A DNA stretch of 33,782 bases, taken from positions 1-33,782 of IMG/VR virus record IMGVR_UViG_3300027804_001396; one strand, written 5' to 3'. The DNA is from a virus (Duplodnaviria; Caudoviricetes). Of this stretch, positions 9,269 through 28,286 are shown one piece after another. Each line of letters begins with the position of its first letter. The stretch's first letter is position 1. The position numbers and the translations under genes were made by a program. Under the pieces are notes generated by a model that was not told the DNA's origin, made no database searches, and saw nothing but the letters and a program-made list of their open reading frames with translations.

Positions 9269-12079
9269 ATGAATGGTTTTCTATCTAACTCCCCATTTGC
9301 AGGATCTAACCCAGAATTAAGTACAAAAACCAAAGAAACTGAATTTTATCTTCCTAGTTTATACTTAAATGAAGAAGAAGTCCAAGAAGAAAATAAAAGG
9401 TTTTCTGAATTCATAGACAATACAGTTGAAGCTAGAGAGTATACTAAAAACTCAACTTTAGATGATAAAGAAAGATTACAAGTTCAGACTTACTATGAAA
9501 ATAAAGAAGATTTTTGGAAGTCAGCAACAAAAGCCTCAACTAATAAAATTAATGAAGTATTGGCTGGTTGGCGTTTAGATAGAGAAGACGAACCAGTAAT
9601 GAGTATTACAGTGGCTGGACCCGAAGTTACTTTATTCCAACCAAAAAAACTTGCTAACAGTGATTGGCAATTTGTTGATGAGTTTACTTTTGCTGGTGGT
9701 TCTACTTTTGGTGCTTTATTAGATGCTGAAGCCAGTACTCCTCAATTTACAGAACTATCTGGACGAAATGCTCAAGCAAATCACTATGCTGCTATTAGAG
9801 CCAGAGGTGGTAAGCAAGGAGAACTATGGTCACGGGCTATTCAAAATAGTACTTGGTTACAGGGAATGTTAACAGAAACAGACTCAGTTAAACAAGCTTT
9901 AGATGGTTGGATTGAGAGTACACCAACTGCTTTTAACGTAAAGGCATCTATTCCATTAAGTGCTTATCTAGGAGATACCATTCTAGATGTCTTAGAAGAT
10001 AGTCCAAAACCAGAAGGATGGACTACTGAACAAGCAATTAAAGAACTAAAGGAAGCTGATCCTGGTCTTGCAGCATTTATCTTTGGTGATATGCAAGTTA
10101 AAGAAGAAAGACTTAAGGAATTAGCTAAAACTCCACTTCAATTTAAATACTTTATTGGTGATGCTATTGATACTTTTGCATATCAATCTTTCTTAGCTGA
10201 ATATACTAAAAAGGCAGGATTCTTTGAAGAAGCATATTCTATTTATGCGTGGCCTTTAATTAGAGATTCAATCAATTCAAATGATGCATTATCTGAAGTT
10301 ATGATTACAGGAGGAGCAATTGCTTTAACTGCTACGGGAGTAGGAGCTTTTGTAGGTATTCCTCTTTTAGTTGGTAAAGGTACAGAAAAAATCTATAAAA
10401 CGGTTAAGGGAGCTGCTAAAACCTTTGATATTATTGAAAGTGTTGCTCGTAGAAGTGGCCAAATAGCCAAAGTAAACCAAGTTATTTGGAAAACACAAAA
10501 GTTTTTACCAAGTAGACTTCCAGATACCGTGTTTGATAGCTGGAGTGTAACTAAAAAGTTATTTAAAGTTCCAAAAGATGCTGGAAGATTGAGAAAAATA
10601 TCAACCTATGCAGGTAAACAATTCATAGGAGAGTTTGCACAAGGTTTACTTGAGTCTGGTGTCCAACAATACGAAGGTATGTCTACTGGATTCCAACAAG
10701 AATTTAGCGTTAAGGATATGTTATATAATGGTCTTGAAGAAGGTATAGGAGGTATATTCTTAGGTGGACCTGTAAAAGCCCTCAGTGTTGGTTCAGAACG
10801 GTTAATGACAACTAAATTAGGTGATCGAATAAACACAGTTATAGATGCGGGTAAAACAATCGTGTCTACCTCAATTAAAGTATCTCCACAAGTTGAAAAT
10901 ACAATAGATACTGCTGTTCGCCTTATGATGGGTATTAAAGATGGAGTATCTATACAGGACTATGAAGGAGCAATTGAACAAAGACTACGACTAAAGAATG
11001 CTTTAATTCGAATTGAAACTACAACTGGTTTAAAAGGTATTTTAGACGCAGATGACGATCAAAATGAGTTATTGACTGCTGCTATTACCGCACTATCTGG
11101 TGGAGATCCTAGTAAAGAATTCCCAGCAAGGGTTGAAATCTTAAAAAGAATTACAACACTTATGGATAGATTCCTAGAACCAGGTACTAATGGAGAAAAC
11201 ACAAGTGCAGAAGACGTAGAAGCTTTACTATTTTTAACGGCTATTGAAGGCGCAGGAAATAATGAAGTAGAGATTGCTCGTATTAATGAAGCTTTGTGGT
11301 TATCTAAGAAGCGTAAAGAAGGTGTTACTGAAAAAGATGGAAAACCCCTTACTATTAAAGACGCTACAGATGATGAACTAAAACAAATAGCCCAAGAAAT
11401 GCAAGATAAGACAAATCTACTTGCTACTAAATTGGGAGTAGATAATGCCGATCAAATTGGTAAGATATTTGGTTCCAGTCTATCTGAAGAGGATATTGAA
11501 CTAACAAACGAAATTATTGAAGAATACGAAAACGATAAAGCAACTTCAGGAAGCACCGAAAAAGAAACAATTAATTTTGGTGTTACAACTGAAGGTGTAA
11601 TTAAAAGTGATGTAGATCCTGTAAAACAAAAAGAAAAACAAGTTACACTTGCTACTAGTACTATGATGGTTGGTATGTTAAAAACAGATGATGAAATTGA
11701 ATTTGAATACTCTTCTGGCTCAAGAGCAGGAACTAAACGACGTATTCGTGTAATTAGTATTGAGACAAATAAGAAGGGTGAGCAAGTAATTAAAGGTTTT
11801 GATCTAGATAAAGGTGAAGAACGAAACTATCTTACAAAAAATATTACTGGTTCCTTTACATATTTCGAATCAAAAAAGAGTGAAACTACATCAGAAGCTA
11901 AGACAAGTATACCAGAAGCTAAAACTGAACCAGTGCCAGCTCCCAGTACTACTAAAGACTCAGTATCATCTATTGTTGATGGTTTATTTGAAAATAAAGA
12001 CGTAGATGAGAATATTGAATTAACAGAAGAAGAAAAAGCAGACTTACTAAATAGAGTTTGCTATAGAAAGGACACTTAA
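9269..12079 (+). CDS. large internal virion protein, 936 aa, with a TM-like segment and a C-terminal WYL-like domain
   Basis: Hydrophobic VMITGGAIALTATGVGAFVGIPLLVG (about 10295-10376); IEFEYSSGSRAGTKRRIRVISIE...IKGFDLDKGEERNYLTKNI (about 11675-11850) fits the WYL pattern. Confidence 0.6.
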   Translation: MNGFLSNSPFAGSNPELSTKTKETEFYLPSLYLNEEEVQEENKRFSEFIDNTVEAREYTKNSTLDDKERLQVQTYYENKEDFWKSATKASTNKINEVLAGWRLDREDEPVMSITVAGPEVTLFQPKKLANSDWQFVDEFTFAGGSTFGALLDAEASTPQFTELSGRNAQANHYAAIRARGGKQGELWSRAIQNSTWLQGMLTETDSVKQALDGWIESTPTAFNVKASIPLSAYLGDTILDVLEDSPKPEGWTTEQAIKELKEADPGLAAFIFGDMQVKEERLKELAKTPLQFKYFIGDAIDTFAYQSFLAEYTKKAGFFEEAYSIYAWPLIRDSINSNDALSEVMITGGAIALTATGVGAFVGIPLLVGKGTEKIYKTVKGAAKTFDIIESVARRSGQIAKVNQVIWKTQKFLPSRLPDTVFDSWSVTKKLFKVPKDAGRLRKISTYAGKQFIGEFAQGLLESGVQQYEGMSTGFQQEFSVKDMLYNGLEEGIGGIFLGGPVKALSVGSERLMTTKLGDRINTVIDAGKTIVSTSIKVSPQVENTIDTAVRLMMGIKDGVSIQDYEGAIEQRLRLKNALIRIETTTGLKGILDADDDQNELLTAAITALSGGDPSKEFPARVEILKRITTLMDRFLEPGTNGENTSAEDVEALLFLTAIEGAGNNEVEIARINEALWLSKKRKEGVTEKDGKPLTIKDATDDELKQIAQEMQDKTNLLATKLGVDNADQIGKIFGSSLSEEDIELTNEIIEEYENDKATSGSTEKETINFGVTTEGVIKSDVDPVKQKEKQVTLATSTMMVGMLKTDDEIEFEYSSGSRAGTKRRIRVISIETNKKGEQVIKGFDLDKGEERNYLTKNITGSFTYFESKKSETTSEAKTSIPEAKTEPVPAPSTTKDSVSSIVDGLFENKDVDENIELTEEEKADLLNRVCYRKDT

Positions 12080-15000
12080 TGGCTACTAAAGGATGCAATA
12101 TCAGTGATTTTATTGAAGATCTCCTAAAACAAACAAATGCAGATGGAACTCGTAAGTATACAGACGCCCAAATCCGTGGTAAACTACGAGCAGCATTTAA
12201 GGGAGGATTAATTAATAAGGCTCAACTGATAGCTACAACAGGTAAAACAGACTTATTAATCACTGAACCAGAGTTTGTTGAACTTGAAAACCTAGCCACT
12301 ACGGTTGCAAACTCAAATAAATCAATGTTTGAGGTTCTTTCCCAAGACCAACTAAAAAGATTTGTTGAACTAACCAACAAAGCTAAAAATTCCATTGGAT
12401 CAGGAACTACTGGTAGACTAAATCAAAGTCGATTAACTTCAGTATTAGATACACTTAACGAAACTCCACCAACTAAAATTACAAGTATTCTTGATATATT
12501 AGATCGTTCAATTGAAAAAGCAGAATTAGTAGGAGATTTAGCAAGAGTAGATAAACTACAGAAGATTAAGGCATCATTTATAGATATGGCTGATCTTTCA
12601 TCTAAATTAAAGATTGACTGGAAAGCTATTTCTAAAACAAACAGTGAACTCGATAAACTTACTCTTGAATACGCAATGGTTAAAGAAATCTTAGATATTG
12701 GCGACAGAGAAACAGCCGAGTTTAAGAAAAAGTTTGCAGTTGAAATGTTAGATATTAAAGATGAAATCCAAAAGACACAAAAAAGAACTGATCTAACAGA
12801 CGACGAAAAGAAAAAAATTATTGATAAACTAATTATCAAACAGCAAGAATTAATGAAGAAGTTTAATGAAACAACTTCAAAAAAGTTTAAAGATGCTAGA
12901 CGAAAGCTTGAAAAGAAACTAAAAACAATCAATTACCAAATTCAGAGACTCAAGGACAATGCCCCTAATTCATTCCTAAATAAAATTCTTATATCTATTA
13001 CAGGTATTGATTCAGAGTTTTTTGTTACTAGTTTAAGAGAACTTAAAGAAAGACAACTAAAAACAGAAGACGATATTAAACTAGCAGAAAAGATCGTTGA
13101 AGAGTATGCTGAGGATAAAACCTTTACTATTGCTGAAGTTCAGTGGTTATTTGGAGAAGACTATACTTCAACTAAAGCTGTTAAAGAAACTTTTTATGAA
13201 ATCGAAAAGAATCCAGATGGATCACCAAAAAAAGACTCTACTAATAAACCAATTAAGAAACGTAAAGAAAGAATTACTTTAGATGAAGTAAAAGAATTGC
13301 TAAGTTTATGGTCTGAGTTTAAACGATCTAAGTCATATGAATCTACAGTTTCAACTTTAGAGTCAACTAGAATAAACAATATTCTCCTAGCTGGAGATGA
13401 CAAACTTGTTTCTGAGGTTGAACCTGAAGATGCTCTTCCAATTGCTAGAACACACACTGAAGCTAAAACAGCTAAAGTTGGATATCGCTATGATCCACGA
13501 AAAGTAGCAGATAGAGTAAAGGGAGTAAAAGATTTACAAACTGCCCTACAAAGACTAACTTATTTAAGTAGTTTACCAAACCATAAAGGTTATATCTCTG
13601 CTGGAATGTTAATTGGTGTACTTGGCCAAGACGCTCAAAGTTTATTCCATAGATTTGATGACGCTATAATGGATGATCTTGAATTAGATAATCCAGATCA
13701 AACCGAATCTGAAACAACAATGGAAGGTAGACGTTTAGTTCTACAAGCAAACCTAGAAAAATTAGGATTTACCTCCAGTGAAATTCTTGCTATGCCAGAG
13801 TTTACTGATGCTGGTTATGTAGATAACTTTACCAAAGTTGTATCTTTTGATATTGAATGGGAACCAAATACAAATAATATTATTGCAGTTGGAATTGTAG
13901 AATACATTAACGGTAATCCAGTTCCAGCCCATACAGAAGTAATTTGGAGTCGATCTGGTAAGGATCAATACCTAACTAAAGACGATGCAGAAGAAGTATT
14001 ACAGAGACTACATACTTATCAGAATAGTGGATTCAAGGTTGTAGGTCATAACTCCCTTGGGTCTGATTCAGATATGCAAAAACTAGTATCTGTTTCTGGT
14101 AATACAAATCTTGGTATGGCTGTTGCCATTCGATCTTTAGATACCATGCTTTTAGGCTTCCGTAATAGCCCTATGGGAACCTTTACAAGAACCTATGGTC
14201 CAAGCCTAGACAACCTGTCTAAAGCCTTAGGAACGGGTTCTAAGGCCAGCAAAGCAGGAGTAACTGGAGTAACTGCCCATGAAGCTTGGAAAGCCTCTCA
14301 TGCAAGCGGAGACTATACCGACTTTACTGACTATTTAATCCAAGACGTTGCACTTACTGGTAGAAATCTTCTGGAAATGGTACATCGAAAGAATACTACA
14401 GTTGATGTTAATAACTCAAGGGGCGAACCACAACCAGTTCAACTATTTGATATTACTCCAATTTGGTATGACACAGGTAAACCAGAAATTGGTAGAAATC
14501 AAAGGTATCGTGGTGTAGGTGTCCTATTTGATATTGTTTCTTTTAAGAATATGCAAGAACAAATGGGCTTAGGTTTATCACAAAGTGTTATGTATGATGT
14601 TGCTAAACTAAAAAACGTTACAATTCAAATGATTCTAGCTCTAATGAAAGCAGATAATAAGTCGGATATTGATACTATCTTTGCTGCTCTAAATGCAAGA
14701 GAAGAAACATTAATAGAAAATTTTGATTCATTATTAGAGATTTCTAGATCAAACCACACTGCTTATCTTCCAATCCTAAGAGAAATTCGAAGAGCAAATC
14801 GAAATGAATTCCTGTTAGACGCATCTCGTGTAAGTGGAAGTGAGGTTGTTTATTCTAAAACTCCAACTAAGAGTGTATATGAAACAAATGCTTTAGAAGA
14901 AGTTATTAGTACCCTTGCTGCATATAACAGAAATCCACAACGATCACTAGATAAGTTTGCTCGGTTAGTCGGATTTAGAGAACGAAACGAAGGTGAAAGT

Positions 15001-18000
15001 GCTCTAAGTTATCTACGAGAATTGTTTAACTATTCAGCAACAAAATTTAACAATCAAAACTTAACCATAAGTGACTTTGGTGATGGTACATTTGATTATG
15101 TTCCAGCTAAACAACTTGGTCGTGGTTTTGCACAACTAGTTCTTGGTCATATTGACGATGGATTAAAACTAAGTCAAAACATTAAGACACCTGTTGATGT
15201 CATTGATCAACGTAGAGAAGAAGCAGAGTTAGATGGTGAAAAGATTGAATTTGAGGATATTGATAACCTCGTAGAAAAGAGAGAGTATCTTCCACTAACA
15301 AAACAAAATGTTTCTTACTTTGCTCCATTAAGTATGTTTGAGCAAGAAAGAATGTATAATGACTTTGCATTAAGACAAAGATATCATTATATTTTAAATC
15401 ACAACCTTACTGATGATGATCTTCGTGAATTCGAAGATTGGAGAAAAGTAAATCCAGTTGTTGAACTTAAAAATGATATTAAACTAAAGCAAGCAATTCT
15501 AAAGGAACTTCGGGATAAAACTCTTAAAACAGAAGCAGATTTAGATAGACTAGAAAAAGTTTATTTCCCAAGTGGAATGACTTTTGTAACTCCATTTGAT
15601 GATTACTTCTTGTTTGATACATCAATCTCCTTTGAAGATAAAGTTAAACAAACAAAATTATTACTTGCTGAATCTAAACAAAACTTAAAAACATATCTTG
15701 AAGGACTTGACAAAGGTCGATTAGAGCAAGGACGTGTTCAAAGATACAATCTACATCTAGTTCCAAATAATAGAAGCATCTATTCTCGTATTCCTACAAT
15801 GGAAGAGATGGAAGAAATGTCTTTAGAAATTGCTTTGGATCTACCACAGTTTATTGCTACTTTTGTTCACGACTCTGTAAATCTAATGGATTCTGCAAAT
15901 GTAGTTGTAGCTGGAGAAAATCATTGGGAAATGCCAGAACTTTCTTCTGGTGGTCCTACTGGTGCAGCTAGACTTGCTGGTATTGATGCCCAACTTGCTT
16001 GGCTTATGAGCCATCCCGAATTAGGTCGAGATCCTGAACTACTAAAAGAACTTACTCGTAAGTCATTAGAAAATGGATGGAAGCAGTTTACTAGTAGAGG
16101 TTGGTCGCGTTCAACCTACTGGGACGATCACATGAGCGGTATTCACCACAAAGCAGCAATGCTTTGGTCATACTTCCCCGATAGTACATTCAAAGCTCAG
16201 GGTGGTTTACTGGCAATCCTTCAAGGAATTAAAGACGGTTCGGTATCTAAAGAAAAACTTAAGGATTACTATGTTGAAACCTATAGTCAACTAGAAATTG
16301 CCTTAGACAAGGTTGAACAAGAGTTTACAAATGCAGGACTAACTAAAAATGTAAATCAAATCCAAAAGATTAGAACTCTGTTAAACGGTAGTACTGAAGT
16401 CCGAGAATTCTTTAAGGGTGTTATTATTCCAGTAGTGTATGAAGGTGGTTATGATGCTGCTCTAACTGGATTACGAGATAAACAAAAATCAAAGATTTCT
16501 CCTGGTGATCCTATTCATCAACTAAATGATGAAGATCTTAAGGAAATTACAAGAATCCTAACTGAAACTGGAATTGTTGTTCAGGGTAGACTTGTCGATG
16601 AAATCCTTGGATTAGATACAAACAAAGTACGAGAGCTGATGAAACTATTTGAACAGGGTGTTGAACGCCTTGCGCCAAACCTTAAGACGGCTACTGATGC
16701 TATGTTTAAGCGTAATCCTATCCTAAGAGATAACTTTATTCATTTAGACGGTGTAAGAGAAGGGATTAAGATTCGTCTACAAACAATTGCTGAATACACT
16801 ATGCCAGCATATTTAGAAAACGAACCAAGAGTCAAACAAGAAGAATGGATAAACAAAAGAGTTGCATTCTTAGAAAACAAGTGGCAAAAAAGAATTAATG
16901 CTGCTTTAGATATTGTAAAGAAAAATGGCGGTTCTATAAAAGTAGGCAGTCAAGTTGAAAGAGATTTCCATGTAGCTTTAGCTGGAGATCAAGCCGCATT
17001 TAAAACACAAATGACTTTACTTGGTATTAATAAGATGCAAAACTCAGGCATCAAGCTTAATTCCTCAGATCGTGATATTCTAGAAGCATCAGTAATGACT
17101 GGTAGACATATTGCCGATTCGGATTTAATGTTTACAGACCATGTAGTATTTACTACAGTAGGTATTGGTACTGGTTCTGGACGTGCTCAGTATGTTGGCA
17201 ACTACCTAACAAACCTACATGGTAGTAAACTGTCAAAGGGTAATCGTTATGTTGAAAATCCAGATGGAAGTATTAACTGGAAAGAAACAGTTAAAAATAG
17301 TGCGTGGAGTTTAGTTGGAAATAACTTAACAGGATTGCCAAAGGATGTTGCCAAAAAGAAGTTACGAGAACTTGCAGTTAAGAATTATCTTCTAACCGTA
17401 GCTACAGACTATCCACCTACCATGATTGGATACAACATGGATGATGAATCTAGAGGACAGTTCTTTAAGGAATGGCAAGAAAGATCTAGAAAAGAGCGAG
17501 AATGGGAAGCTAATGAAAGACTGACTGATATTGAAAAACTAAAAGCAGCTTATACAGCCGAGGGTAGAACCCTTACCGATGAACAAATTGAACAAGCAAT
17601 TGCTAGTAATTCAACACCAAGAAATAAAAGACTAGGTACTCGTATTCTAGCACCAACTATTACTACAAACGATGATGATGCTGTAATGTCTGTTGAAGAT
17701 GCTAAGGGTTTAGCTGGGTTTAGACCAAGACTAGCTGATAATGCTTTTGAAGATAGAATTGTTCATGGTTTATATAGTATCTATCAAGGCATTAAGAAAC
17801 TTAATCTTGGAACCGAAAAGGTTAGAGAAAATTTGGAAAGAATTGAAAAAGAAGGAATGACTCCTGATAAGGTCTTTGACATGGAAAACTCAAGGGCAAC
17901 TCAATACGATCCAAATAAGTTAGGTGTATATTTCCCAGAAGTTGAATCATCCTTAGTTGAGTCTATCTTTGGCGAAAGACCAACATTTAATCAAAGAGTA

Positions 18001-21000
18001 TTAAGATTAAAATATGTCTTAGATACCTTTGCTAGAAAAAATGGATTACAAGATTTAATTGACAACAAAGAATATGCAACAGTTTATCAAATCTATAAGA
18101 TTAGACAATCTCTAAAGAAATTTAGTTTCCTTGTTTCACAGAAAGTAATGCAACCATATGAACTTCGATATCTACATCGACACATGGTTCAACAAATTTT
18201 CCGTTTAACTAAAGCTCAACGAGATGCAACTAATGTTAAAACAAATATTCTCGATCTTTCAAAGTCAATTGGTATTGATCCAGAACACTTTAGATATCCT
18301 GATAATACCAACATGCGTTGGCTTGATGTTCTAAAAACTTTAGCTGATCTAGGTATTGAAGAAGTTTCGACACTTCGTTTTGGTATGTCTCCAGTTGAAA
18401 TGTTAACTACAGAAACAGGCGCAGCACCAGATATTATTTCTGGAAGAAAGACCGCTATTTTCCCTAATACTATTCAAGGTGGAGACGTTGCGGTTATTTT
18501 TGAAAGAATCTGGGCTAATGATTTAGTACAAAAGGAAGCTAAAGTTTATCTTGATAATCTAGTAAAGACTGGTGTTATCACTGGATATAAGACAGATCAA
18601 ACAAATAAATATGTTCTTTTATCATCTCTAGATAAAGCAACTGAACAACAAGTTCTTGAACACATTCTTGGTAATGATGAACTTATTATGGGTGCTGCTG
18701 AAAATCTTGGTTTATTTGTTGACTTTGAAATGGGAACTTCAGAAAATATCCTTAGATTGCAGAATTCCCAATTCCACGCTAATACAGATGGCGTATATAT
18801 TAATCCACAACGAGGCTTAGGTGAAATTACTGTAAGCCGTGTGGTTGAGGGTTCGCAAAATATTAAGTTCTACTTGACACCCGAAGCTGTTAAGAGAATT
18901 TTAAGAGGTGCTAGAAACTCTGGATTGTTTACACGAATTGAAACTGCTGTTCAAATAAATAAGTTCCTTGGCACTAGTACAACGGTAGATCAGTTACGAA
19001 GAGAAAAATATGCAGAGTATCTTGATTCACATCTAGATCAACTTGCAGATGAGACAGATATTCTTGCTGAACTACAAGGTGATAATCTACAAAGATTGCG
19101 TACAGATCGACTTAGAGATTCAATGGGTATTGAACTTAATCTTTATGATGCCGAGTATTACTTCCACAATGAAGATTCAATTACAAACCTTACTCCATTT
19201 AAAAATGCAGTTACTTTAGATATTAGAATTGCTGCTGAACGGGCTTCAAGATATCCTGCTTTACAAACTGAATATGGTGTTTTAAATCGTTTAATGACTG
19301 AAGATAAAAACCAATGGTGGTTCTTGCGTATTGGTTTTGCAATCTTCTTACAGAATAATCTAGGTCGAACACTAACTGAACAGGAGTTAAAGATTATTCT
19401 AGAAGAGCATTTTGGTGAAAAGTTTACAGATGTAAAATATAATGAATTTACTACAAAACTTTCTCAAGTTACCAATATTATTGACCGAATCAACCACTCC
19501 CCATTCAAAGGTAAGAATAAGTATCTTCATCTTGCAATCAAGCATAGAGAACAAATGCTTGCGGTACCACAAACCTTTAATGATAAATTTGATGTTTTCT
19601 CGTTTATCAAAAACTTTGGAGTACCTGTTGAAGATCATGACCTCGCAGCTCAAGCTGTAATTGAAGCATATGCTATTGTTGAAAACAAAGCAAATCTTCC
19701 TGAAGCTTATTCAACAATCCCAAGCAATGATTTAATTAAGATTGCTAGTAGTTCAACAGATTTTGATATTGCATTCCCTGAAGGAAAACAAATCAATGCT
19801 CAACTTGTTAAACTAAAGATGGATGGTGTAATTGACGACGAAACAGAAACATTCTATCGTTTACTTATTGGTAAAGTTCTAAAGCATAATCCCCATTTAG
19901 CTAAGTTCTTATCTATTAAGATAGACGACCTTGGTACAATTAGAGCTGGTGAAGCTGTAAAGGATGGAGATAGATTTATTATCAATCTTAATCCAACCAT
20001 TCTAAAGAACATGGGTCGCATAGATCAAATTAGAGTATTCTCACATGAAATTGCACACATTGCTAGACTAGCTTTTATTAAGGATAACGGACCAGAGTGG
20101 AGAAAGATTGAATCATTGTTTAGATCCAAGAGAGGTTCACAAGGTATCGAAACAATGTTATTAGTAATGAACAATAACCAACGATACGAAGGATTTGAAC
20201 AAGATTTACGATACTTTAAAGAAAATCCTGAAGAGTTTATTGCTTTCTGGGGTGGTTGGATGTTGGTTGAACAAGTGTTTAATAATGTTGATGTTATGAA
20301 GTTTATTCAATCTAGAAGTACAGCCGCTTACGCTGTAACTATGGGATATAAAACAGCTTTCCACAGAATTAGAGATGAAGTCAAAGCAATCTCATCTGGT
20401 CTTTATGATATTGATGAACAAGTGTTTAATGAAGTTCTCGATCTTACTGAAGCATTGTTTGGTTTTACAAGTTCTATCGAAAGAGAAATCTTTGTTGCTA
20501 ATGAAAACAAAACACTTGGATACCTGGGAGACTTTGATGAACCAATATCAAACACTGGTAGAGATGTAGACGAACTTGCTAGACTAACTCAAGATGAAAG
20601 AAATGGAGTTCCACTTAACGCTCTTGATCAACTTAAGTTAGCAAGTTTACGAAATAAATATAGCAGTGGTCCAATTCAAAACTTAGATATTGTCGAGTAT
20701 AAGAGACTACGACAAAAGAGAGAATCTTTACAAGGAAGTTCCTTATTAAAGCCAACACACAGAGAGCATCCAGGATATACTGGAGTATCTGTACAAGATC
20801 TTTCTTCAGAAGAAAAGCTTGAGATTGCACAGACTGTGGTTTCAGAAACAATCGCAAGACGAAAAAATACCTCTATTAATCAAAGTTCACTTGGTGGTTC
20901 GGCACGACTTGCTTCCGAAAAGGTTTTTGGAAAGAAGGCTACAAGAAATCTTTTAGCATTTAGGCACTACTGGGGAACTATGGGTTTAACACGAGCAAAC

Positions 21001-24000
21001 AAAACCTATTCTAGTGAAAACCCAGCCGTAGCTGCTTTAATGTATATTATTGGTGAAAGCTTTAGTCATACTCAAGGTCAGTTTGTAAAAGAAACTGGAT
21101 CTAGAGCAATTAGAGAAAACAGAGCTTATACCCAACAGTGGGTTGACCGAGTTGCTTATGAAATTGGACAACTTAAGATTATGTCCTCTGACACCGAGTT
21201 TGCTGCTCTTATGGAATATGCTGTTGATGTTGCTTATGGTTTACCAACAGCTACACCACCAACTGGTATTTCAGTAGACAAGATTGATCAAGCTCGGGAA
21301 GTTGGTAAGGCTATTATCATTAATTCAGATAATATGGCAGGATTTATTTATGGTGAAGGAAGAAAGTTATTTAGTGATTTACCTGTAATGCTTAACCGAG
21401 AATTACTAGGATTAAGAAAGAAGAATTCCAATCCTGCCAAAGAAGGTGAATTTGAAGCTAATAGAGCAGGACTTATCCAAGCTGCATCTGATGCAGTAGT
21501 TGATTCTGTACTAAATAAAGGTGCAATAAATGGAACACTATTCTACGCTAGTGGATTAGCTCCTCAAATTAGTGGACATCCATATAGTTTTGATAGGAAT
21601 CAGTTTATTGATCAAGAATTCTTATCTAAACTATGGGAAACAAGAAACAATAGTCCAGAAACATTTGAGATTATTTTTGAAATTGCAGTTCGTCAACTAA
21701 ATAAGATAACCAAAGATGTAGCTATATCTAGACAGATGTTACGACAATCAATGACAAATCCTAGTTTTACGCTTAATGCAAAACCAAATTTACATAGAAT
21801 TTGGGAATCAGCCACTAGAACTTTCTATCAACTTGCAAACAATACAAGAAACAGAAATGAATTAATTAAAAGTATTAATAGAATTTCTTCAAAGAGAGAA
21901 AAAGTTCCAGACATTGATTTAGTAGTTGTTCAGGATTTCTTTAATGCTATTGATGCTGCAATTGTTTCAAAACAACCAGTTAGAGACATGGGTAAGTTAT
22001 TTGTAGAAAGCACAAAAGGATCTTTCCCACCTGGAGTTACCAATATTCCAGCTGGAAAGAAATCAGCAATTGTATTGACTGCACAAACCAAAACCACATT
22101 ACCAGAAATCATGGCTGGCGTTTTCCTATCTGAACTTGGAGAATCACCTAACTATATTCTTGCTGATGGTATTATTACTGATACTCAGATTGCCAAGTCT
22201 GCTAATCTAAGAAAGTATTTCTCAAATAGACTTGATATAATCCTAAGTGATGTTGAAAGATCTAAGGGTTTTAGAGCTACTTCGGCATTGGCTATTCAAG
22301 ATAATACAGGAATTGTTGGATTTGATATCTATGATATTCTTGAGATTTTTGAATCACTGGCTAGTAATATGAATCCAAATCTATCACAAGATGCCAAGGA
22401 ATTACAAGAATCATTAATTGTAATTCGACAAAACCTAGAAATTGAACAAGGTATTCAAGCTAGAAAATTAGGAGAAGAAGACGATTGGTATACCAATTCT
22501 TTACTAAAGTGGGGTACTGAAATTACAAGAATTGCATATGGCCCAAATCTCAATACCGCATCTTTAATTATGGAAGGTGCCCTTGGTGCATTCATTACCA
22601 CTAGATATGGAGGCAATGCAACTGAGTTCTTTGTGGATCTCTTTACTGGTATCTTTAAAAATTACAAAGGTAGTTTTGAAGACATGACAACATATAATCC
22701 ACGAGGACTTGCCATTAATATGTTGTACGGAATGGAGTCTTCAATACGAAATGCCCGTGAAGTATGGGATACTACAAGTAGCAATGATATTGCCCCAGGT
22801 CCTAATAAATGGCAACGATATCGAAACCATATGAGTAAACTACAGAATTCAGTATTTAGAGGAGCTGCTGAAGCATTAACTAACCAAGCTCAACGAATTA
22901 TCGTAGAAAACCTAAATAATGGAAACTTAAATAAACTACGGACATTGTTTAAGGTAGAGGATATCAGAACACTAGATGATTTAAAAATTGCAATGAACAA
23001 GTATAAGATTAAGGGTTTACTGCCTCACATGGCATTTGAACTCAAACAAGCTGGTGTTCTAGAGGATGGAATCCTTGAAGCATATTCATACATGTTAGGA
23101 AATGTTTCTAGTAAGCATGCTAAGGCAGGAACATTAGACTTTATAGCTGCAAATAAATGGATTGAAAACCATGCGTTTACTGTAACATTTGTTGGAAAGA
23201 ATAAGTTTGATAAAGAACAAGCCAAGAGAGCTGTTGCTGTAATGTACGAAGCAACCAAGATGTTTAGAAACATTGTGCTTGTAGAAAACAATCCTTGGGA
23301 CTCAGATACTCACTCTGGAGCTTTACGATATCTATTTACCTTCTATAAACAATATTCCAATCTTTATTGGTCACAGAGAATCATCAGACAATCAGGAAAG
23401 ATGGACAAAGCAACTTTTGTTTCTATCTTAATTGGAACAACAATTGCAGATTTGGTATACAATAGTTTCTTACTAGTTGCACTTGGTATGCTTCCAATTG
23501 CTGCTTTGTTACCTTGGCATGAACAATTTGTGTTTAAAAACAAACCAATGACCACAGCAAGATTAATTCTTAGTAGAAATCCAATCTTTGGTTTAAGTGG
23601 AAACCTTATTGCTGGTTCAATTGCCTATGCTTATGAAACATATAGTGATGTTTCAAACGCTAGAGCAAATAGAAATGAATATCTAGCAACAAAGAAAGCA
23701 GTTGGCAAAGGCTTTGATGAATTAAGTTTAGACTTTGTTCCACAGCAAGCAGTTGAAACACTTACAAAAGATCCACTTACAGCATTCCTAATTGCACTGA
23801 GTGCGGGTTCAAACATGACAGAACAAGAATCATGGGACTTTAAGAATGGACTTTTAAACTCAGCAATGAGATTTGTACCTGGGGGTTTAGGTGAACTTCC
23901 AGTTCGCGTTGGAGCTACTAAGCTTGCATTAGGTGAAAGACCAGGTGTAGATAGGTTTAGAGATGTTAATGTTTCTAGACCAGAAACAGCAGCAGAACCT

Positions 24001-24081
24001 GTTGCTCCTACAGAATCATCTGAGTCAACATCTTCAAGAGATAATCCATTTAAGCCACTGCCAGTTCCAAAGGGACTGTAA
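12079..24081 (+). CDS. giant 4000-aa polyvalent virion protein: DEDDy 3'-5' exonuclease + T7-type RNAP-like domain + zincin metallopeptidase
   Basis: Exonuclease: SFDIEW (D591/E593), VGHNSLGSDSD, YLIQD (Y752/D756). RNAP-like: WDDHMSGIHHKAAML (D1349), REFFKGVIIPVVYEG (R1442/K1446/Y1454), NFIHLDG. Zincin: FSHEIAH (H2656) and NPEEFIA. Confidence 0.75.
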   Translation: MATKGCNISDFIEDLLKQTNADGTRKYTDAQIRGKLRAAFKGGLINKAQLIATTGKTDLLITEPEFVELENLATTVANSNKSMFEVLSQDQLKRFVELTNKAKNSIGSGTTGRLNQSRLTSVLDTLNETPPTKITSILDILDRSIEKAELVGDLARVDKLQKIKASFIDMADLSSKLKIDWKAISKTNSELDKLTLEYAMVKEILDIGDRETAEFKKKFAVEMLDIKDEIQKTQKRTDLTDDEKKKIIDKLIIKQQELMKKFNETTSKKFKDARRKLEKKLKTINYQIQRLKDNAPNSFLNKILISITGIDSEFFVTSLRELKERQLKTEDDIKLAEKIVEEYAEDKTFTIAEVQWLFGEDYTSTKAVKETFYEIEKNPDGSPKKDSTNKPIKKRKERITLDEVKELLSLWSEFKRSKSYESTVSTLESTRINNILLAGDDKLVSEVEPEDALPIARTHTEAKTAKVGYRYDPRKVADRVKGVKDLQTALQRLTYLSSLPNHKGYISAGMLIGVLGQDAQSLFHRFDDAIMDDLELDNPDQTESETTMEGRRLVLQANLEKLGFTSSEILAMPEFTDAGYVDNFTKVVSFDIEWEPNTNNIIAVGIVEYINGNPVPAHTEVIWSRSGKDQYLTKDDAEEVLQRLHTYQNSGFKVVGHNSLGSDSDMQKLVSVSGNTNLGMAVAIRSLDTMLLGFRNSPMGTFTRTYGPSLDNLSKALGTGSKASKAGVTGVTAHEAWKASHASGDYTDFTDYLIQDVALTGRNLLEMVHRKNTTVDVNNSRGEPQPVQLFDITPIWYDTGKPEIGRNQRYRGVGVLFDIVSFKNMQEQMGLGLSQSVMYDVAKLKNVTIQMILALMKADNKSDIDTIFAALNAREETLIENFDSLLEISRSNHTAYLPILREIRRANRNEFLLDASRVSGSEVVYSKTPTKSVYETNALEEVISTLAAYNRNPQRSLDKFARLVGFRERNEGESALSYLRELFNYSATKFNNQNLTISDFGDGTFDYVPAKQLGRGFAQLVLGHIDDGLKLSQNIKTPVDVIDQRREEAELDGEKIEFEDIDNLVEKREYLPLTKQNVSYFAPLSMFEQERMYNDFALRQRYHYILNHNLTDDDLREFEDWRKVNPVVELKNDIKLKQAILKELRDKTLKTEADLDRLEKVYFPSGMTFVTPFDDYFLFDTSISFEDKVKQTKLLLAESKQNLKTYLEGLDKGRLEQGRVQRYNLHLVPNNRSIYSRIPTMEEMEEMSLEIALDLPQFIATFVHDSVNLMDSANVVVAGENHWEMPELSSGGPTGAARLAGIDAQLAWLMSHPELGRDPELLKELTRKSLENGWKQFTSRGWSRSTYWDDHMSGIHHKAAMLWSYFPDSTFKAQGGLLAILQGIKDGSVSKEKLKDYYVETYSQLEIALDKVEQEFTNAGLTKNVNQIQKIRTLLNGSTEVREFFKGVIIPVVYEGGYDAALTGLRDKQKSKISPGDPIHQLNDEDLKEITRILTETGIVVQGRLVDEILGLDTNKVRELMKLFEQGVERLAPNLKTATDAMFKRNPILRDNFIHLDGVREGIKIRLQTIAEYTMPAYLENEPRVKQEEWINKRVAFLENKWQKRINAALDIVKKNGGSIKVGSQVERDFHVALAGDQAAFKTQMTLLGINKMQNSGIKLNSSDRDILEASVMTGRHIADSDLMFTDHVVFTTVGIGTGSGRAQYVGNYLTNLHGSKLSKGNRYVENPDGSINWKETVKNSAWSLVGNNLTGLPKDVAKKKLRELAVKNYLLTVATDYPPTMIGYNMDDESRGQFFKEWQERSRKEREWEANERLTDIEKLKAAYTAEGRTLTDEQIEQAIASNSTPRNKRLGTRILAPTITTNDDDAVMSVEDAKGLAGFRPRLADNAFEDRIVHGLYSIYQGIKKLNLGTEKVRENLERIEKEGMTPDKVFDMENSRATQYDPNKLGVYFPEVESSLVESIFGERPTFNQRVLRLKYVLDTFARKNGLQDLIDNKEYATVYQIYKIRQSLKKFSFLVSQKVMQPYELRYLHRHMVQQIFRLTKAQRDATNVKTNILDLSKSIGIDPEHFRYPDNTNMRWLDVLKTLADLGIEEVSTLRFGMSPVEMLTTETGAAPDIISGRKTAIFPNTIQGGDVAVIFERIWANDLVQKEAKVYLDNLVKTGVITGYKTDQTNKYVLLSSLDKATEQQVLEHILGNDELIMGAAENLGLFVDFEMGTSENILRLQNSQFHANTDGVYINPQRGLGEITVSRVVEGSQNIKFYLTPEAVKRILRGARNSGLFTRIETAVQINKFLGTSTTVDQLRREKYAEYLDSHLDQLADETDILAELQGDNLQRLRTDRLRDSMGIELNLYDAEYYFHNEDSITNLTPFKNAVTLDIRIAAERASRYPALQTEYGVLNRLMTEDKNQWWFLRIGFAIFLQNNLGRTLTEQELKIILEEHFGEKFTDVKYNEFTTKLSQVTNIIDRINHSPFKGKNKYLHLAIKHREQMLAVPQTFNDKFDVFSFIKNFGVPVEDHDLAAQAVIEAYAIVENKANLPEAYSTIPSNDLIKIASSSTDFDIAFPEGKQINAQLVKLKMDGVIDDETETFYRLLIGKVLKHNPHLAKFLSIKIDDLGTIRAGEAVKDGDRFIINLNPTILKNMGRIDQIRVFSHEIAHIARLAFIKDNGPEWRKIESLFRSKRGSQGIETMLLVMNNNQRYEGFEQDLRYFKENPEEFIAFWGGWMLVEQVFNNVDVMKFIQSRSTAAYAVTMGYKTAFHRIRDEVKAISSGLYDIDEQVFNEVLDLTEALFGFTSSIEREIFVANENKTLGYLGDFDEPISNTGRDVDELARLTQDERNGVPLNALDQLKLASLRNKYSSGPIQNLDIVEYKRLRQKRESLQGSSLLKPTHREHPGYTGVSVQDLSSEEKLEIAQTVVSETIARRKNTSINQSSLGGSARLASEKVFGKKATRNLLAFRHYWGTMGLTRANKTYSSENPAVAALMYIIGESFSHTQGQFVKETGSRAIRENRAYTQQWVDRVAYEIGQLKIMSSDTEFAALMEYAVDVAYGLPTATPPTGISVDKIDQAREVGKAIIINSDNMAGFIYGEGRKLFSDLPVMLNRELLGLRKKNSNPAKEGEFEANRAGLIQAASDAVVDSVLNKGAINGTLFYASGLAPQISGHPYSFDRNQFIDQEFLSKLWETRNNSPETFEIIFEIAVRQLNKITKDVAISRQMLRQSMTNPSFTLNAKPNLHRIWESATRTFYQLANNTRNRNELIKSINRISSKREKVPDIDLVVVQDFFNAIDAAIVSKQPVRDMGKLFVESTKGSFPPGVTNIPAGKKSAIVLTAQTKTTLPEIMAGVFLSELGESPNYILADGIITDTQIAKSANLRKYFSNRLDIILSDVERSKGFRATSALAIQDNTGIVGFDIYDILEIFESLASNMNPNLSQDAKELQESLIVIRQNLEIEQGIQARKLGEEDDWYTNSLLKWGTEITRIAYGPNLNTASLIMEGALGAFITTRYGGNATEFFVDLFTGIFKNYKGSFEDMTTYNPRGLAINMLYGMESSIRNAREVWDTTSSNDIAPGPNKWQRYRNHMSKLQNSVFRGAAEALTNQAQRIIVENLNNGNLNKLRTLFKVEDIRTLDDLKIAMNKYKIKGLLPHMAFELKQAGVLEDGILEAYSYMLGNVSSKHAKAGTLDFIAANKWIENHAFTVTFVGKNKFDKEQAKRAVAVMYEATKMFRNIVLVENNPWDSDTHSGALRYLFTFYKQYSNLYWSQRIIRQSGKMDKATFVSILIGTTIADLVYNSFLLVALGMLPIAALLPWHEQFVFKNKPMTTARLILSRNPIFGLSGNLIAGSIAYAYETYSDVSNARANRNEYLATKKAVGKGFDELSLDFVPQQAVETLTKDPLTAFLIALSAGSNMTEQESWDFKNGLLNSAMRFVPGGLGELPVRVGATKLALGERPGVDRFRDVNVSRPETAAEPVAPTESSESTSSRDNPFKPLPVPKGL

Positions 24082-24172
24082 GAAATCGACTTTGGGGTCA
24101 GAAATTTTTGTGGGGGGTTTGGATGTTAGGTTTGTTGCCTAACCCCCCTCACCCCCAGTTGAAAGGAACTGT

Positions 24173-24334
24173 ATGGGTCATTTCTGGAAAGCCCTGAAGA
24201 TCGTGTTCGGGGCCATCATCGGTCTGCTCTTTCTCATGGCTGCGGTTAGCGCAGTCACCTGGGAGTGGGCAATCCTTTGTTTCGCCATGTTTTGCATGAT
24301 GTTTACTTTCGTTATGCAGAATGTGTGCGAGTGA
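24173..24334 (+). CDS. small two-TM membrane protein, 53 aa (not in ORF track)
   Basis: MGHFWKALKIVFGAIIGLLFLMAAVSAVTWEWAILCFAMFCMMFTFVMQNVCE with RBS GAAAGGAA upstream. Confidence 0.65.
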   Translation: MGHFWKALKIVFGAIIGLLFLMAAVSAVTWEWAILCFAMFCMMFTFVMQNVCE

Positions 24335-24343
24335 CAACCAACA

Positions 24344-24432
24344 CTCCGTGCTCTCCCTTCGGGGAGAGCGCGGGGATGTTAGCTGTTGCTAACACTGTGC
24401 TTGTGCAGATCACAGGCAATTTAACGAGGAGA
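24344..24432 (+). promoter_or_regulatory. multi-hairpin intergenic leader, copy 1
   Basis: Long cUUCGg hairpin, then TGTTAGC-tgtt-GCTAACA, then CTTGTG-cagat-CACAGG, then the RBS. Confidence 0.6.
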
Positions 24433-24436
24433 GCAC

Positions 24437-24598
24437 ATGCTCTACTACGTCACTGTTGAGCGGGATGGAGTTCACGTCGAGACGCACAAGTTCGCTTCCT
24501 GGAAGGAAGCGCGTCAGTACGCCTACGCAGTCAAGGCTGCGCGGCGTGGCGTGGAGGTCTGGATCGGACAAGACGGCGAAGGCGCCGTCAAGATCTGA
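24437..24598 (+). CDS. small hypothetical protein, 53 aa (not in ORF track)
   Basis: MLYYVTVERDGVHVETHKFASWKEARQYAYAVKAARRGVEVWIGQDGEGAVKI; RBS GAGGAG; fills the gap between two leader repeats. Confidence 0.7.
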   Translation: MLYYVTVERDGVHVETHKFASWKEARQYAYAVKAARRGVEVWIGQDGEGAVKI

Positions 24599-24617
24599 TC
24601 TACCGCAACGACCAACA

Positions 24618-24703
24618 CCCCGCTCCTCTGCTACGGCAGGGGGGCGGGGATGTTAGCCGTTGCTAACACCGTACCTATGCGGAACATAGGCTATTCAAAG
24701 GAG
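24618..24703 (+). promoter_or_regulatory. multi-hairpin intergenic leader, copy 2
   Basis: Long cUACGg hairpin, TGTTAGC-cgtt-GCTAACA, CCTATG-cggaa-CATAGG, then CTATTCAAAGGAG. Confidence 0.65.
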
Positions 24704-24711
24704 TAAAGCCA

Positions 24712-25227
24712 ATGGCTTTGCTTACGAAGGCGGTTAGCTGGAGCTCCATCGTGGAGCTCGGCGCAAAGCTCTGCGACCACTGTCGCGGAGAAAACGGAAA
24801 GGCTTTCAAGGAAGCCTTTCTTCTGGGGCAGCGTTGTCCCCAGAACTCGCTGTCCTTTGGGGGCCGCGAAGCGGCCCTCAATGGCAAGTTCGCCATCGCG
24901 TCATCTTTTGCTTGGCTCAAGACCAAGCAGGAGATCGACGTTCTGGAGGCTCGCCTCCTGAACGAAACGTACTCCCTGCGCGGGGAGTACGAGTACGGAC
25001 ACGCCGTGGAGGAACTGGATCAGTTCCTGCACGGGCTCTCTGCATATGCAGAGAGTGACGTCGATTACCTGATGTGGCAGAGCGCCACGTCAGGTACGCG
25101 GATCGTCTGCGTCCGCAAGACGCAGCGGTCTGAGTCCAGGGGCACAACGCACACCTGGATCGCGGAGTACCACGAGGGCCACAAGCTTTCGCAGTACGGC
25201 GCGCTGTGGTCAGAAATGACCGCGTGA
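24712..25227 (+). CDS. hypothetical early protein, 171 aa
   Basis: RBS AAAGGAG, GC-rich third codon positions, one CxxC (CDHC). Confidence 0.7.
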   Translation: MALLTKAVSWSSIVELGAKLCDHCRGENGKAFKEAFLLGQRCPQNSLSFGGREAALNGKFAIASSFAWLKTKQEIDVLEARLLNETYSLRGEYEYGHAVEELDQFLHGLSAYAESDVDYLMWQSATSGTRIVCVRKTQRSESRGTTHTWIAEYHEGHKLSQYGALWSEMTA

Positions 25228-25240
25228 CGGCACTACCGTC

Positions 25241-25331
25241 GCTCTCTCCTAGGTAGGTCCCTAGGAGAGAGCTTTCGGCTGCGCTGTTGCAGCACACCGT
25301 ACCTGTGCGGATCACAGGCTATTCAAAGGAG
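25241..25331 (+). promoter_or_regulatory. multi-hairpin intergenic leader, copy 3
   Basis: 13-bp hairpin, GCTGC-gctgtt-GCAGC, then a 38-nt block that is 35/38 identical to copy 2. Confidence 0.65.
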
Positions 25332-25338
25332 GAGCCAC

Positions 25339-25629
25339 ATGGCTCAATCCGACAAGTGGGTCATCACGACCCGCTACCTGGTGATGGAAGGACCGAAGGC
25401 AATCCTGTCTCGGTCGTCCATCTTGGACGCGATTGATGATTGTGCACAGAGGCATCTGTGCTACATTCGCAGGGAAACTACCATTAAGGTTGATGAAACC
25501 TTGACGGTGATTTCCAACTGCGACATCAACCTTCCAATTCTTCCTGTACACGACATCTACAACATCCCGAATGGGATGGATTACGATGCGCTGAAGAAGC
25601 GAATGCAGGAGGTGTTCTACGGTAAGTAA
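25339..25629 (+). CDS. hypothetical early protein, 96 aa
   Basis: Strong RBS AAAGGAGGAG; bounded by leader hairpins. Confidence 0.7.
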   Translation: MAQSDKWVITTRYLVMEGPKAILSRSSILDAIDDCAQRHLCYIRRETTIKVDETLTVISNCDINLPILPVHDIYNIPNGMDYDALKKRMQEVFYGK

Positions 25630-25769
25630 GAACTAAACGATCCTACCCAAGCCCCCTAGGTTTTCCTAGGGGGCGAAGGGCTGTATCGTTACAGCAAACC
25701 CCTAACGGCATTGAGGGGTGCCCATTCTGGGCCTACATTCAAACCAGGGCACAGCCCTAGGAGAATACA

Positions 25770-27584
25770 ATGCCTGTTTCCTTTGCTAGTCTTCCGACTA
25801 GCGCAAAGGTTACGCACTTCATCACGGACTTGGTCATCAAGTCTGGAGAGGCGCGTAACCAGCCTTCCTTTGTGGAGGCGGTCAAGGTTCGTTGGGATAA
25901 CACCGTTATTCCAGCCCTTGAGAACGGCGACCTGACGGTGTTCCAGGTCGGTGACGAGAAGTGGATGCGTAACCCGTCGTCAAGGATGACGAAGGACTAC
26001 CGCGTCTGCCTCAGCCCGAGGACCCTGCGTCACAGCGACACGACCAGCAAGAGCGGATTCGATCTGCCCCTGCTGTACGCCGCTGAGCAGGACGCTCGGA
26101 GCCAGATCAAGTTCACGGTGAATCGCCAGTTGCTGGCGATCATCCAGAACTCGGCCCTGGTTCCCGAGCTCGCTGCCGAATTCGGAAAGGACCCTGCCAT
26201 TGCTGTGGCAGAACGGTTCCTCCGTTCGGCGGAAGGGACGAAGCAGTTCCACTTCTTCATCCCGCCGTTCCTGGACGATGTCGGCCGCGAGTATGGTGAG
26301 GGAATGCTCACCTACACGGGCAGCCAGATGATCCGCAACCTGATCGAGTTCTACGACCAGCTGGACTACAGCATGGACGAACTCAAGGAGCTTGAGCCCA
26401 TGATCATTCATGCGGCTGGAGTCTCCCTGAAGAACTACGAGGACGTGATCAAGAAGGCGAACGACATCCTGTCGGGCAAGTGGAAGTTCAAGAATCCGTG
26501 GCTCACGCTGCGGATGGCGATCTTCTACCAGGAGGTCATCACCACTGGGCGCTCTGGTGCCCATCTGGAGTTCGACTTCCGCACCAGCGGACCCATGCTC
26601 CTTGGTCTGATGTCTGGCGACCGCAACATGATGGTTGATACCAACATGTTCGGCGCTGACGGACGCGACTGCCGTAACACGGTGATCAGCCTTGTTACGG
26701 TGCCCCTTGCTCTTCGCAAGTGGGAGTCCCGTCTTCTGACCAAGGACGTGGCAAAGCCGTTCGTGACCCAGACCACCTACGGTCAGGGTCCGAGTGGTGC
26801 TGCCTCAGGGCTGTTCTGGAAGGATGACGATAAGGCTCCAGCCAACTGGCTGAACGCCTTCGGCATCCCCAACACGGTTGTCCTTGACGCTGTGTGGTCG
26901 AAGAGGCCGAACCTCTTCAACCCCGAGTGGATGGACATCGTCCGCGAACTCGGGTGGGTCGAGGGCTACTCGGCTCTCCACGATCTGGCTTCGCAGTACT
27001 ATAACGCTTTCTGGGGTGCATACCACCAGCTCAAGCGTTTCTGCCAGCAGATCCAGGAGGCCAGTGAGGCCCAGCAGCTTGCCACTGGCAAGAAGCCGTC
27101 CTACACCAACGTCTCCGACTGGACCTACAATCACCACAAGTGGGTGATGAAGGAAGGTGGCAAGGTCATTCGCTGTCGCTACAATGGCGACAAGTGCAAG
27201 GACTTCCCCAAGGGGTTCGAAGTCTCCATCGGTGAGATGGTGGACATCGCTTCCCCGTACAGCATGGTGGTTCGTATGACCCACCAGGCTGACGCCTGGA
27301 TCCGTATGATGGCCTTCTGGTCCATCTACAAGTTCCAGATCGCCACCTTCGGGCGGTACGTCGGTCACATGGCGGTTCACGATGCGTTCATCGTGCCCGT
27401 CAAGATGGGACCGAAGATGCACAAGGTGATGCGTCCCGTGATGCATCAGTTTGTGAACAAGTACGTTCCGCACGTCCACAAGTGGATGCGTGACCACGGG
27501 CAGGAGCCGCCCGTGATCACCAAGGATCAGCTCAAGCTGGTCCACTGGTCCATCGCCAACAACACCTCGTGGCTCAACCTCTGA
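25770..27584 (+). CDS. single-subunit T7-type DNA-dependent RNA polymerase, N-terminally shortened (604 aa)
   Basis: Motifs in canonical order: FFIPPFLDDVGREY (DxxGR, D169), EFDFRTSG (motif A, D269), KDVAKPFVTQTTYG (motif B, K329/Y337), THQADA (H505), AVHDAF (motif C, D538). RBS AGGAG. Confidence 0.85.
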   Translation: MPVSFASLPTSAKVTHFITDLVIKSGEARNQPSFVEAVKVRWDNTVIPALENGDLTVFQVGDEKWMRNPSSRMTKDYRVCLSPRTLRHSDTTSKSGFDLPLLYAAEQDARSQIKFTVNRQLLAIIQNSALVPELAAEFGKDPAIAVAERFLRSAEGTKQFHFFIPPFLDDVGREYGEGMLTYTGSQMIRNLIEFYDQLDYSMDELKELEPMIIHAAGVSLKNYEDVIKKANDILSGKWKFKNPWLTLRMAIFYQEVITTGRSGAHLEFDFRTSGPMLLGLMSGDRNMMVDTNMFGADGRDCRNTVISLVTVPLALRKWESRLLTKDVAKPFVTQTTYGQGPSGAASGLFWKDDDKAPANWLNAFGIPNTVVLDAVWSKRPNLFNPEWMDIVRELGWVEGYSALHDLASQYYNAFWGAYHQLKRFCQQIQEASEAQQLATGKKPSYTNVSDWTYNHHKWVMKEGGKVIRCRYNGDKCKDFPKGFEVSIGEMVDIASPYSMVVRMTHQADAWIRMMAFWSIYKFQIATFGRYVGHMAVHDAFIVPVKMGPKMHKVMRPVMHQFVNKYVPHVHKWMRDHGQEPPVITKDQLKLVHWSIANNTSWLNL

Positions 27585-27715
27585 CCGCCTCTAACCGCAT
27601 GGCACGGGGGAAACCCCGTGCTGTGCTTTGGGCATTTCTGCCCACCTCGCCTACGGAGAACCCAGTAGGGGATTTCCTGTTATCCCAAAGAACAGGCTTT
27701 TAGGAGATTGTCACC

Positions 27716-28175: not shown

Positions 28176-28286
28176 CCTCTCCCTGTTTGTTAGGGCTTTG
28201 GTAGGCATGGGTATACTAGACTATACCCTTTCTGTAGGCATAGAACTCAGGGTAGTTATAGACTTATAGTCAAAATGGTATTACAG

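Follow-up and report, generated by a model that had tools for sequence, protein, structure and literature searches.

What do the repeated hairpins before the first genes of this phage do, and would they do it as RNA or as template DNA? The window (the whole stretch of DNA that we analyzed, 33,782 nucleotides) is the entire 33.8-kb contig of a T7-type phage with terminase genes of the T7 type, and the sequencing runs containing the region are freshwater metagenomes. A sequence-only reading had described a leader of three hairpins (referred to here as H1, which is long, and the shorter H2 and H3) repeated between 24121 and 25331, and had offered three functions for it: promoters in hairpin form that an injected polymerase would read, elements acting in the processing or stability of RNA, or recombination cassettes for the swapping of early genes. 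As we will argue below, the second of these is the best supported.

Layout of the genome and its early region

Before 24080, the contig carries terminase genes and large internal-virion-type genes, the last of them the 4000-aa ORF, and directly after this giant ORF, near 24080, GC content steps from ~35% to 55%. The conserved motif that follows (Table 1) is present in one copy in each of three complete relatives (~69 kb). Once these relatives are rotated to the motif, all genes lie on one strand in a T7-like order (small genes, compact polymerase, polymerase of the 811-aa class, replication, structure, terminase, giant gene), which places the junction region at the likely first-entering end of the genome. 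No promoter was found at the left end; a scan of the plus strand from 24081 to 27150 for sigma-70 promoters gave no match. The terminus motif also occurs, together with a G-rich/C-rich stem, in three loci of quite different gene content (L021, L024, and L029), which suggests a shared packaging or host-linked signal; these loci lack the junctions despite sharing the motif. Three of 16 motif matches (L017, L018, and L026) lie in unrelated contexts and were rejected as chance.

The giant ORF probably holds a single-subunit RNA polymerase domain at about residues 1200-1900, and likely also an RNase H-like domain and a zincin motif. Motif A/B residues are invariant, with T7-like spacing, among 13 aligned homologs, and the best of 48,161 chains matched to residues 435-551 of the domain model are mtRNAP (Z 7.8) and T7 RNAP (Z 7.7), although flagellin reaches Z 7.4 on the same poor model and is thus tied with these matches to polymerase fingers. 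Foldseek with the poor model and a PDB sequence search gave no match for the domain, hhalign aligned motif B alone at a probability of 2.4%, motif C was not located, and neither a Pfam vRNAP match for the ORF nor a match to the domain among GenBank phages was found; the Atlas features of the ORF (0.83-0.86) are a lead only. The compact 604-aa polymerase has one weak match among GenBank phages and a profile link to Pfam RNA_pol-positive proteins. A further, T7-like Pfam RNA_pol protein of 811-839 aa is present in 5/5 relatives searched and lies at 8791-11226 in L001. From the window, L001, and G001-G005, the group seems to have three single-subunit RNA polymerases, namely a compact early enzyme, an ordinary one of 811-839 aa, and a likely domain within a virion-type protein of 4000-4180 aa. 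The searches made yielded no 69-kb genome of T7 order with a giant virion polymerase.

In the early region, the long hairpins, H2, and H3 were all located as first described. Blocks 24666-24703 and 25294-25331, on recounting, do differ at 3/38 nt, and the compensatory change among these concerns one H3 pair (A24677/T24687 against G25305/C25315). The folds of the four window junctions each beat 200/200 shuffles (z -5.2 to -7.3). The proposed formula of the leader is followed in full only by the copies before 24712 and 25339. The element at 24121, taken at first for a full leader, has an H2-like hairpin without H1 or H3, and its interior varies freely among relatives. Nor does every H1 have a UUCG or UACG loop (that of 25241-25272 has six bases), and CTATTCAAAGGAG is present in only two copies. 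Overlooked in the first reading were the junction at 25633-25769, the element at 27597-27643, and the fact that each H2 loop can pair with bases that precede H1.

Table 1. Coordinates of features in the window.
Feature	Coordinates	Strand	Details
4000-aa ORF	12079..24081	+	position of last internal virion protein
Conserved motif right after giant gene	24083..24107	+	likely genome end or packaging signal
H2-like hairpin, leader of gene 1	24125..24143	+	inside G-rich/C-rich stem; not a full junction
Early ORF, 53 aa	24173..24334	+	family common to L012, L033, L034
Junction, type A	24330..24436	+	long form 24330-24390; H1 24344-24375 (UUCG loop); H2 24378-24393; H3 24400-24416; then SD
Early ORF, 53 aa	24437..24598	+	family common to L002/L019
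Junction, type A	24605..24711	+	long form 24605-24663; H1 24618-24649 (UACG loop); H2 24652-24667; H3 24674-24690; then SD
Early ORF, 171 aa	24712..25227	+	no homolog among 12 loci compared
Junction, type B	25224..25338	+	long form 25224-25290; H1 25241-25272; H2 25278-25293; H3 25302-25318; then SD
Early ORF, 96 aa	25339..25629	+	
Junction, type C, before 604-aa gene	25636..25769	+	long form 25636-25690; H1 25651-25674; H2 25680-25695; H3 25699-25718; further hairpins; SD
Compact T7-like single-subunit RNA polymerase, 604 aa	25770..27584	+	model pLDDT 75.9; Foldseek to T7 RNAP E 2.6e-13
Related H1 (GAAA loop) + H2 element, after polymerase gene	27597..27643	+	
Pistol self-cleaving ribozyme	29453-29522		Rfam 48 bits against a gathering score of 34.5

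Loci of relatives were collected by protein and pattern scans. With the H2 pattern, and once two hits lying within ORFs had been dropped, the phage and its relatives yielded 35 distinct junctions, which fall into three types (A, B, and C), and 34 after leaving out L012_491, where H1 is mis-called; L034_737 and L003_449 were also left out of the fixed-register tables. Across 12 loci, we counted 19 families of small ORFs (automatic calls, a few of them imperfect). The junction DNA is 86-98% identical to that of L019 (98% over 25225-25284), and the small polymerase of L019 is 21% identical to that of the window over 266 residues. Different genes thus lie between near-identical cassettes in relatives, and we infer that the repeated junctions provide homology for recombination that swaps small early genes. 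The mosaic of genes fits the original suggestion of recombination cassettes, although no recombination event was observed. In L034, ~250 nt upstream of the first type A junction, we noted a junction that keeps H3 and the SD only, with both H1 and H2 gone, consistent with a deletion between short repeats. Searches beyond the group returned little: Rfam covariance models, including those of self-cleaving ribozymes, gave no match at E <= 1 over the junctions; GenBank phages gave no DNA match to 24060-24720; a pattern scan of GTDB gave only 12 single matches in unrelated bacteria, which we take as chance; and no description of the phage group or junction element was found in the literature, in which older papers on T7 and SP82 processing were thinly covered.

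Several features downstream of the junctions stand apart from them. The ORF-poor stretch 28938-29493 is covered by RNA-library contigs of two studies at depths of 40 and 80, against ~1-9 nearby; it folds at z -4.4, has an Rfam match at its end only, and is likely a non-coding RNA without an Rfam name. The gapped motif CTGAGCA...AAACTGCT occurs in three exact copies (29093-29115, 29255-29277, and 30117-30140), none being expected by chance, with looser copies visible by eye near 29167, 30027, and 30857. After the last early gene, 28200-28600 is AT-richer and holds short repeats, making it a possible replication origin. A small hairpin conserved in four clades lies at ~31570-31595 (and at the same place in G001-G003), with a stem resembling a terminator ahead of it and the middle genes and an AT-rich tract directly behind it; the hairpin is a candidate promoter of the compact polymerase or origin element.

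H1 and two conserved folds that cannot coexist

H1 stems measure 10-14 bp (the upper stems of type C, 10 bp) and close loops of 4-6 nt. Because the non-Watson-Crick pairs of the 25 distinct stems, read on the plus strand, comprise 23 G.U against 1 A.C, and because 17/25 loops are UNCG or GNRA, H1 is by these signatures a sense-strand RNA hairpin. The U-tail after it is weak, with 1-4 T in 8 compared with 4-7 for control hairpins in relatives and up to 7 for the terminators of the phage itself after its DUF932 and capsid genes; types A and C have none, and type B retains a short U-run. True terminators of these phages share arms and loops with H1. Their stems are likewise 12-16 bp long, and we therefore dropped the length of H1 as an argument for RNase III. 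A genome-wide count of G.T against A.C pairs (171 vs 62), which includes coding hairpins, was also set aside.

The loop of H2 covaries with 4-8 bases upstream of H1 (34 distinct junctions; permutation p 0.0006-0.002, values that overstate independence in that the junction sequences are akin to one another). The upstream partner lies 8-16 nt before H1, and the H2 loop, variable in sequence, tracks it: AACGAT pairs with ATCGTT at 25636-25690, CTGAGT with ACTCAG in L022, and CGGCAC with GTGCCG in L019. Bases around the upstream stop codon form a lower stem with the 5′ arm and loop of H2, and this stem continues through a bulge or internal loop into H1, giving a long form of 51-69 nt whose irregular intergenic duplex spans about two helical turns (20-27 bp in 34/34 junctions). 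Since H2 loses its 5′ arm and loop to the long form, the two are mutually exclusive. By reasoning, we rejected a pseudoknot of the H2 loop with its upstream partner, as no linker would be left to cross the groove.

Partners from the same junction pair better than swapped ones within type A (p 0.0014, 15 junctions), type B (p 0.0006, 8), and type C (p 0.0018, 7), and also when each distinct H2 core is represented once (p 0.0002, 11). Compared with shuffles of both sides, 27/34 junctions reach z < -1.5 (20/34 when the upstream side alone is shuffled), as do 0/11 hairpins outside the early region, 0/15 early junctions of a sister clade, 1/6 hairpins after the 136-aa gene family, and 1/5 elements after the polymerase gene. 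For the latter, the long form is unsupported in 4/4 same-clade relatives tested, the window copy being outside that test. When 16 B and C junctions are placed in a fixed register, 94% of core cells pair, against 24-48% when the sides are slid; mismatches are fixed as well, U.U in 16/16 and A.C in 15/16 of these junctions and C.A in 14/14 of type A. Within alignment A3, both sides change in 8/11 lower-stem pairs, several of them through single sequences, and 4/5 H2 pairs are invariant. Across 15 cores, H2 stems are nearly all Watson-Crick (77 such pairs, 1 G.T, and 1 A.C). Covariation of this kind shows that the long form and H2 are both kept through compensatory change and cannot coexist.

As plus-strand RNA, the long form beats H1 plus H2 in 29/34 junctions, and as DNA in only 11-14/34; the energy gap between the folds is small (median -2.1 kcal/mol). 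The probability of H2 in uncut RNA is below 0.5 for 28/34, and H2 dominates even in the uncut RNA of the other 6/34. In all four window copies, the RNA piece downstream of H1 folds H2. The three side-by-side hairpins first described are thus one of two alternative folds, with the long form favored in uncut RNA. Strand asymmetry differs between parts of the element: taken by itself, the lower stem is the better fold on the minus strand in 28/34 junctions as RNA and 29/34 as DNA, since that strand turns the fixed A.C mismatches into G.U, and the entire long form folds better on the plus strand in only 14/34. The upstream linker is 80% A or C, a composition that could itself yield A.C mismatches, but the minus-strand preference still counts against the processing reading given below.

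Processing, promoter, terminator, or switch

The simplest use for two mutually exclusive, conserved folds is that each serves at its own time. In our preferred reading, to which we give a probability of about 0.6, the junctions are two-state elements whose long duplex is likely cut by the host RNase III, the downstream end then refolding into H2. Transcription starting near the genome end, possibly carried out by the giant virion polymerase, would yield a single long early RNA, in which the long form would fold first. A cut by RNase III in the 3′ strand, within or close to the central loop, would leave H1 on the upstream message as a 3′ barrier; the weak lower stem would fall apart, and H2, followed by H3, would shield the new 5′ end ahead of the SD.

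An RNase III substrate spans ~22 bp (PMC6212723), with a minimum of 11 bp from cut to loop, and internal loops restrict the enzyme to one cut that leaves a protective 3′ hairpin (PMC1540722); the T7 site R1.1 is 60 nt long with a 4/5 internal loop (PMC6121014). The upper stems of type C being 10 bp, any cut there would fall in or below the loop. Duplexes were scored using our own implementation of an E. coli count matrix (PMC6212723, supplement Table S4), which may not suit the host of this phage. The 34 junctions have a median of -25.7 on this E. coli matrix (the host may differ), with 13/34 in the top 5% of random threads; the matrix gives weak support only, because control terminator hairpins score a median of -28.3 and overlap the junctions (p 0.04, related sequences). 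Predicted cuts fall at or before the start of H2 in 27/34 junctions and inside H2 in 7/34, scattering between 5 nt within H1 and 7 nt beyond its end. Measured in the same way, four of five T7 early hairpins (under what we take to be their names and positions in the T7 record, where they are not annotated) have 52-81 nt and 21-28 bp, whereas the fifth folded short; the scores of the five on this matrix range from -24 to -32. When R1.1 is folded from the T7 record, the RNA left after the predicted cut makes a hairpin of 7 bp, placed 2 nt from its new end. A refold of this kind is thus predicted in T7 too, but among the junctions it is the norm. Downstream of H1, the first 40 nt fold at a median of -12.1 kcal/mol, compared with -0.3 to -6.2 at the five T7 sites.

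RNA libraries offer a further view of the region. None of the 12 pieces in 23700-26100 crosses an H1, and DNA pieces of similar depth do, although these are assembled contigs and a gap proves nothing. Two of the six free left ends of RNA-library contigs (25292 and 25694, from two studies) lie 1 nt inside the 3′ end of H2, at homologous but non-identical places, which fits an RNA structure reaching upstream of that point; the match was noticed post hoc, and DNA carry-over is possible. One contig (27440-27990) crosses the element after the polymerase gene, and two others cross the stop of the giant gene into gene 1, which may reflect read-through or DNA. The junctions probably belong to the RNase III class: they would act as T7 early processing signals do, with the refold added, and they also behave as cassettes for gene shuffling.

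The idea of hairpin promoters for an injected polymerase fares differently for the two hairpins: it is unlikely for H1, whose wobbles and tetraloops lie on the plus strand, and still compatible with H2. The template strand would then carry H2 as a hairpin promoter of the N4 type for the giant virion polymerase, and a competing long form in DNA would hide it until the upstream stretch had been opened. We consider this unlikely, although the nearly pure Watson-Crick stems of H2, the better folding of the lower stem on the minus strand, the probable polymerase domain of the giant ORF, and the lack of a plus-strand sigma-70 match in 24081-27150 would all suit it, as would a G lying 12-14 nt from the center of H2 in 16/25 distinct cases, close to the 13-14 nt given for LUZ7 early promoters (PMC9163698). 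That G is missing from 6/7 type C cases, including the junction before the polymerase gene. N4 promoters, according to PMC4496689, require a conserved 3-nt loop; H2 loops measure 2-6 nt across the 15 cores, follow the upstream partner, and have no fixed sequence. The long form is favored as DNA in only 14/34, the SD directly follows H2 in L022, and the RNA-library contigs starting at 25292 and 25694 begin upstream of the predicted start (a weak point, as they may be DNA carry-over). Very unlikely, in our estimate, is a relay in which the junctions are two-state promoters in template DNA for the 4000-aa polymerase, the long fold hiding H2 until upstream transcription occupies the partner strand; early genes would fire one after another as the genome enters, and each RNA would receive a stable 3′ hairpin. 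If true, such a promoter logic would be new, and the phage group using it would have three single-subunit polymerases.

The junctions could also be terminators fused to promoters, of the PeSL or P23-45 pre-early type; H1 would stop the polymerase, the first G of H2 would begin a new RNA, and only in read-through RNA would the long form matter. Precedents exist in PeSLs (PMC4122927) and P23-45 units (PMC10770324), H1 has its arms and loops in common with the true terminators of the phage, and type B has its short U-run. Moreover, in the sister clade (L014, L015, L023, and L028), plain U-tailed terminators occupy the same places before every early gene without a long form (one seen there by eye was rejected, permutation p 0.90), so the position can serve stop-and-restart. 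We nevertheless hold this to be decidedly unlikely for the junctions: the covariation of the H2 loop with its upstream partner requires both in one molecule and so speaks against one RNA ending and another beginning between H1 and H2, types A and C lack the U-tail, and no fixed promoter sequence is common to types A, B, and C. Each early gene of the sister clade, having such a terminator before it, would need its own start; there, a conserved ATGGG and a small hairpin accompany the U-tailed terminator, and this unit is a candidate promoter for the giant polymerase of that clade. The least probable of the readings leaves the message uncut, the two folds acting as a decay barrier or as a switch in which a ribosome at the upstream stop unzips the lower stem and H2 forms. 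The upstream stop does end 2-29 nt before H1, often within the lower stem, in 28/31 junctions with a gene call, and energy gaps are small; but the downstream SD lies tens of bases away, covered by neither fold, and neither fold makes a terminator, leaving no evident output for a switch without a cut.

If processing by RNase III is the correct reading, the junctions embody a design rule for phage early messages, in which one 60-nt spacer is cut once, both resulting ends are structured, and the same spacer doubles as a recombination site for the swapping of early genes. A junction might then be used as a portable part wherever an operon is to be split, and the sister clade, with U-tailed terminators at the same places, provides a natural comparison.

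Comparison with known systems

N4 and LUZ7, as described in PMC4496689 and PMC9163698, resemble this phage in having a left-end early region with a second, compact polymerase and a giant polymerase (here likely a virion polymerase), and its short hairpin with a G 12-14 nt from the center in 16/25 cases recalls theirs. Unlike them, the junctions lack a conserved 3-nt loop, the asymmetry of H1 favors the non-template strand, and the phage group has a third, T7-like polymerase of 811-839 aa and a T7-type terminase. In the PeSL cassettes of T4-type phages (PMC2839356 and PMC4122927), repeated stem-loops with an SD likewise flank small variable early genes, but the junctions have no sigma-70-like promoter (plus strand, 24081-27150), their U-tail is weak or absent, and their fold is two-state. 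It is the U-tailed terminators of the sister clade that resemble the P23-45 units (PMC10770324).

The closest likeness is with the early RNase III signals of T7, which are also long intergenic hairpins, interrupted by an internal loop and placed ahead of one early gene after another, that of the polymerase among them, and which are similar to the junctions in size and in score on the E. coli matrix. Compared with the R1.1 type, the junctions differ in having an alternative hairpin at nearly every site, an added H3, GC-rich stems, fixed U.U and A.C or C.A mismatches, and near-identical copies around swapped genes. In the Bacillus phages SP82 and SPO1, early polycistronic RNA is cut at intergenic stem-loops and the products are stabilized, the stem-loops being RNase III sites and 5′ stabilizers. 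The junctions would be alike in combining cleavage of an intergenic stem-loop, here a predicted one, with stabilized products. As a conserved two-state spacer, the junction extends the idea of the processing sites already known from T7.
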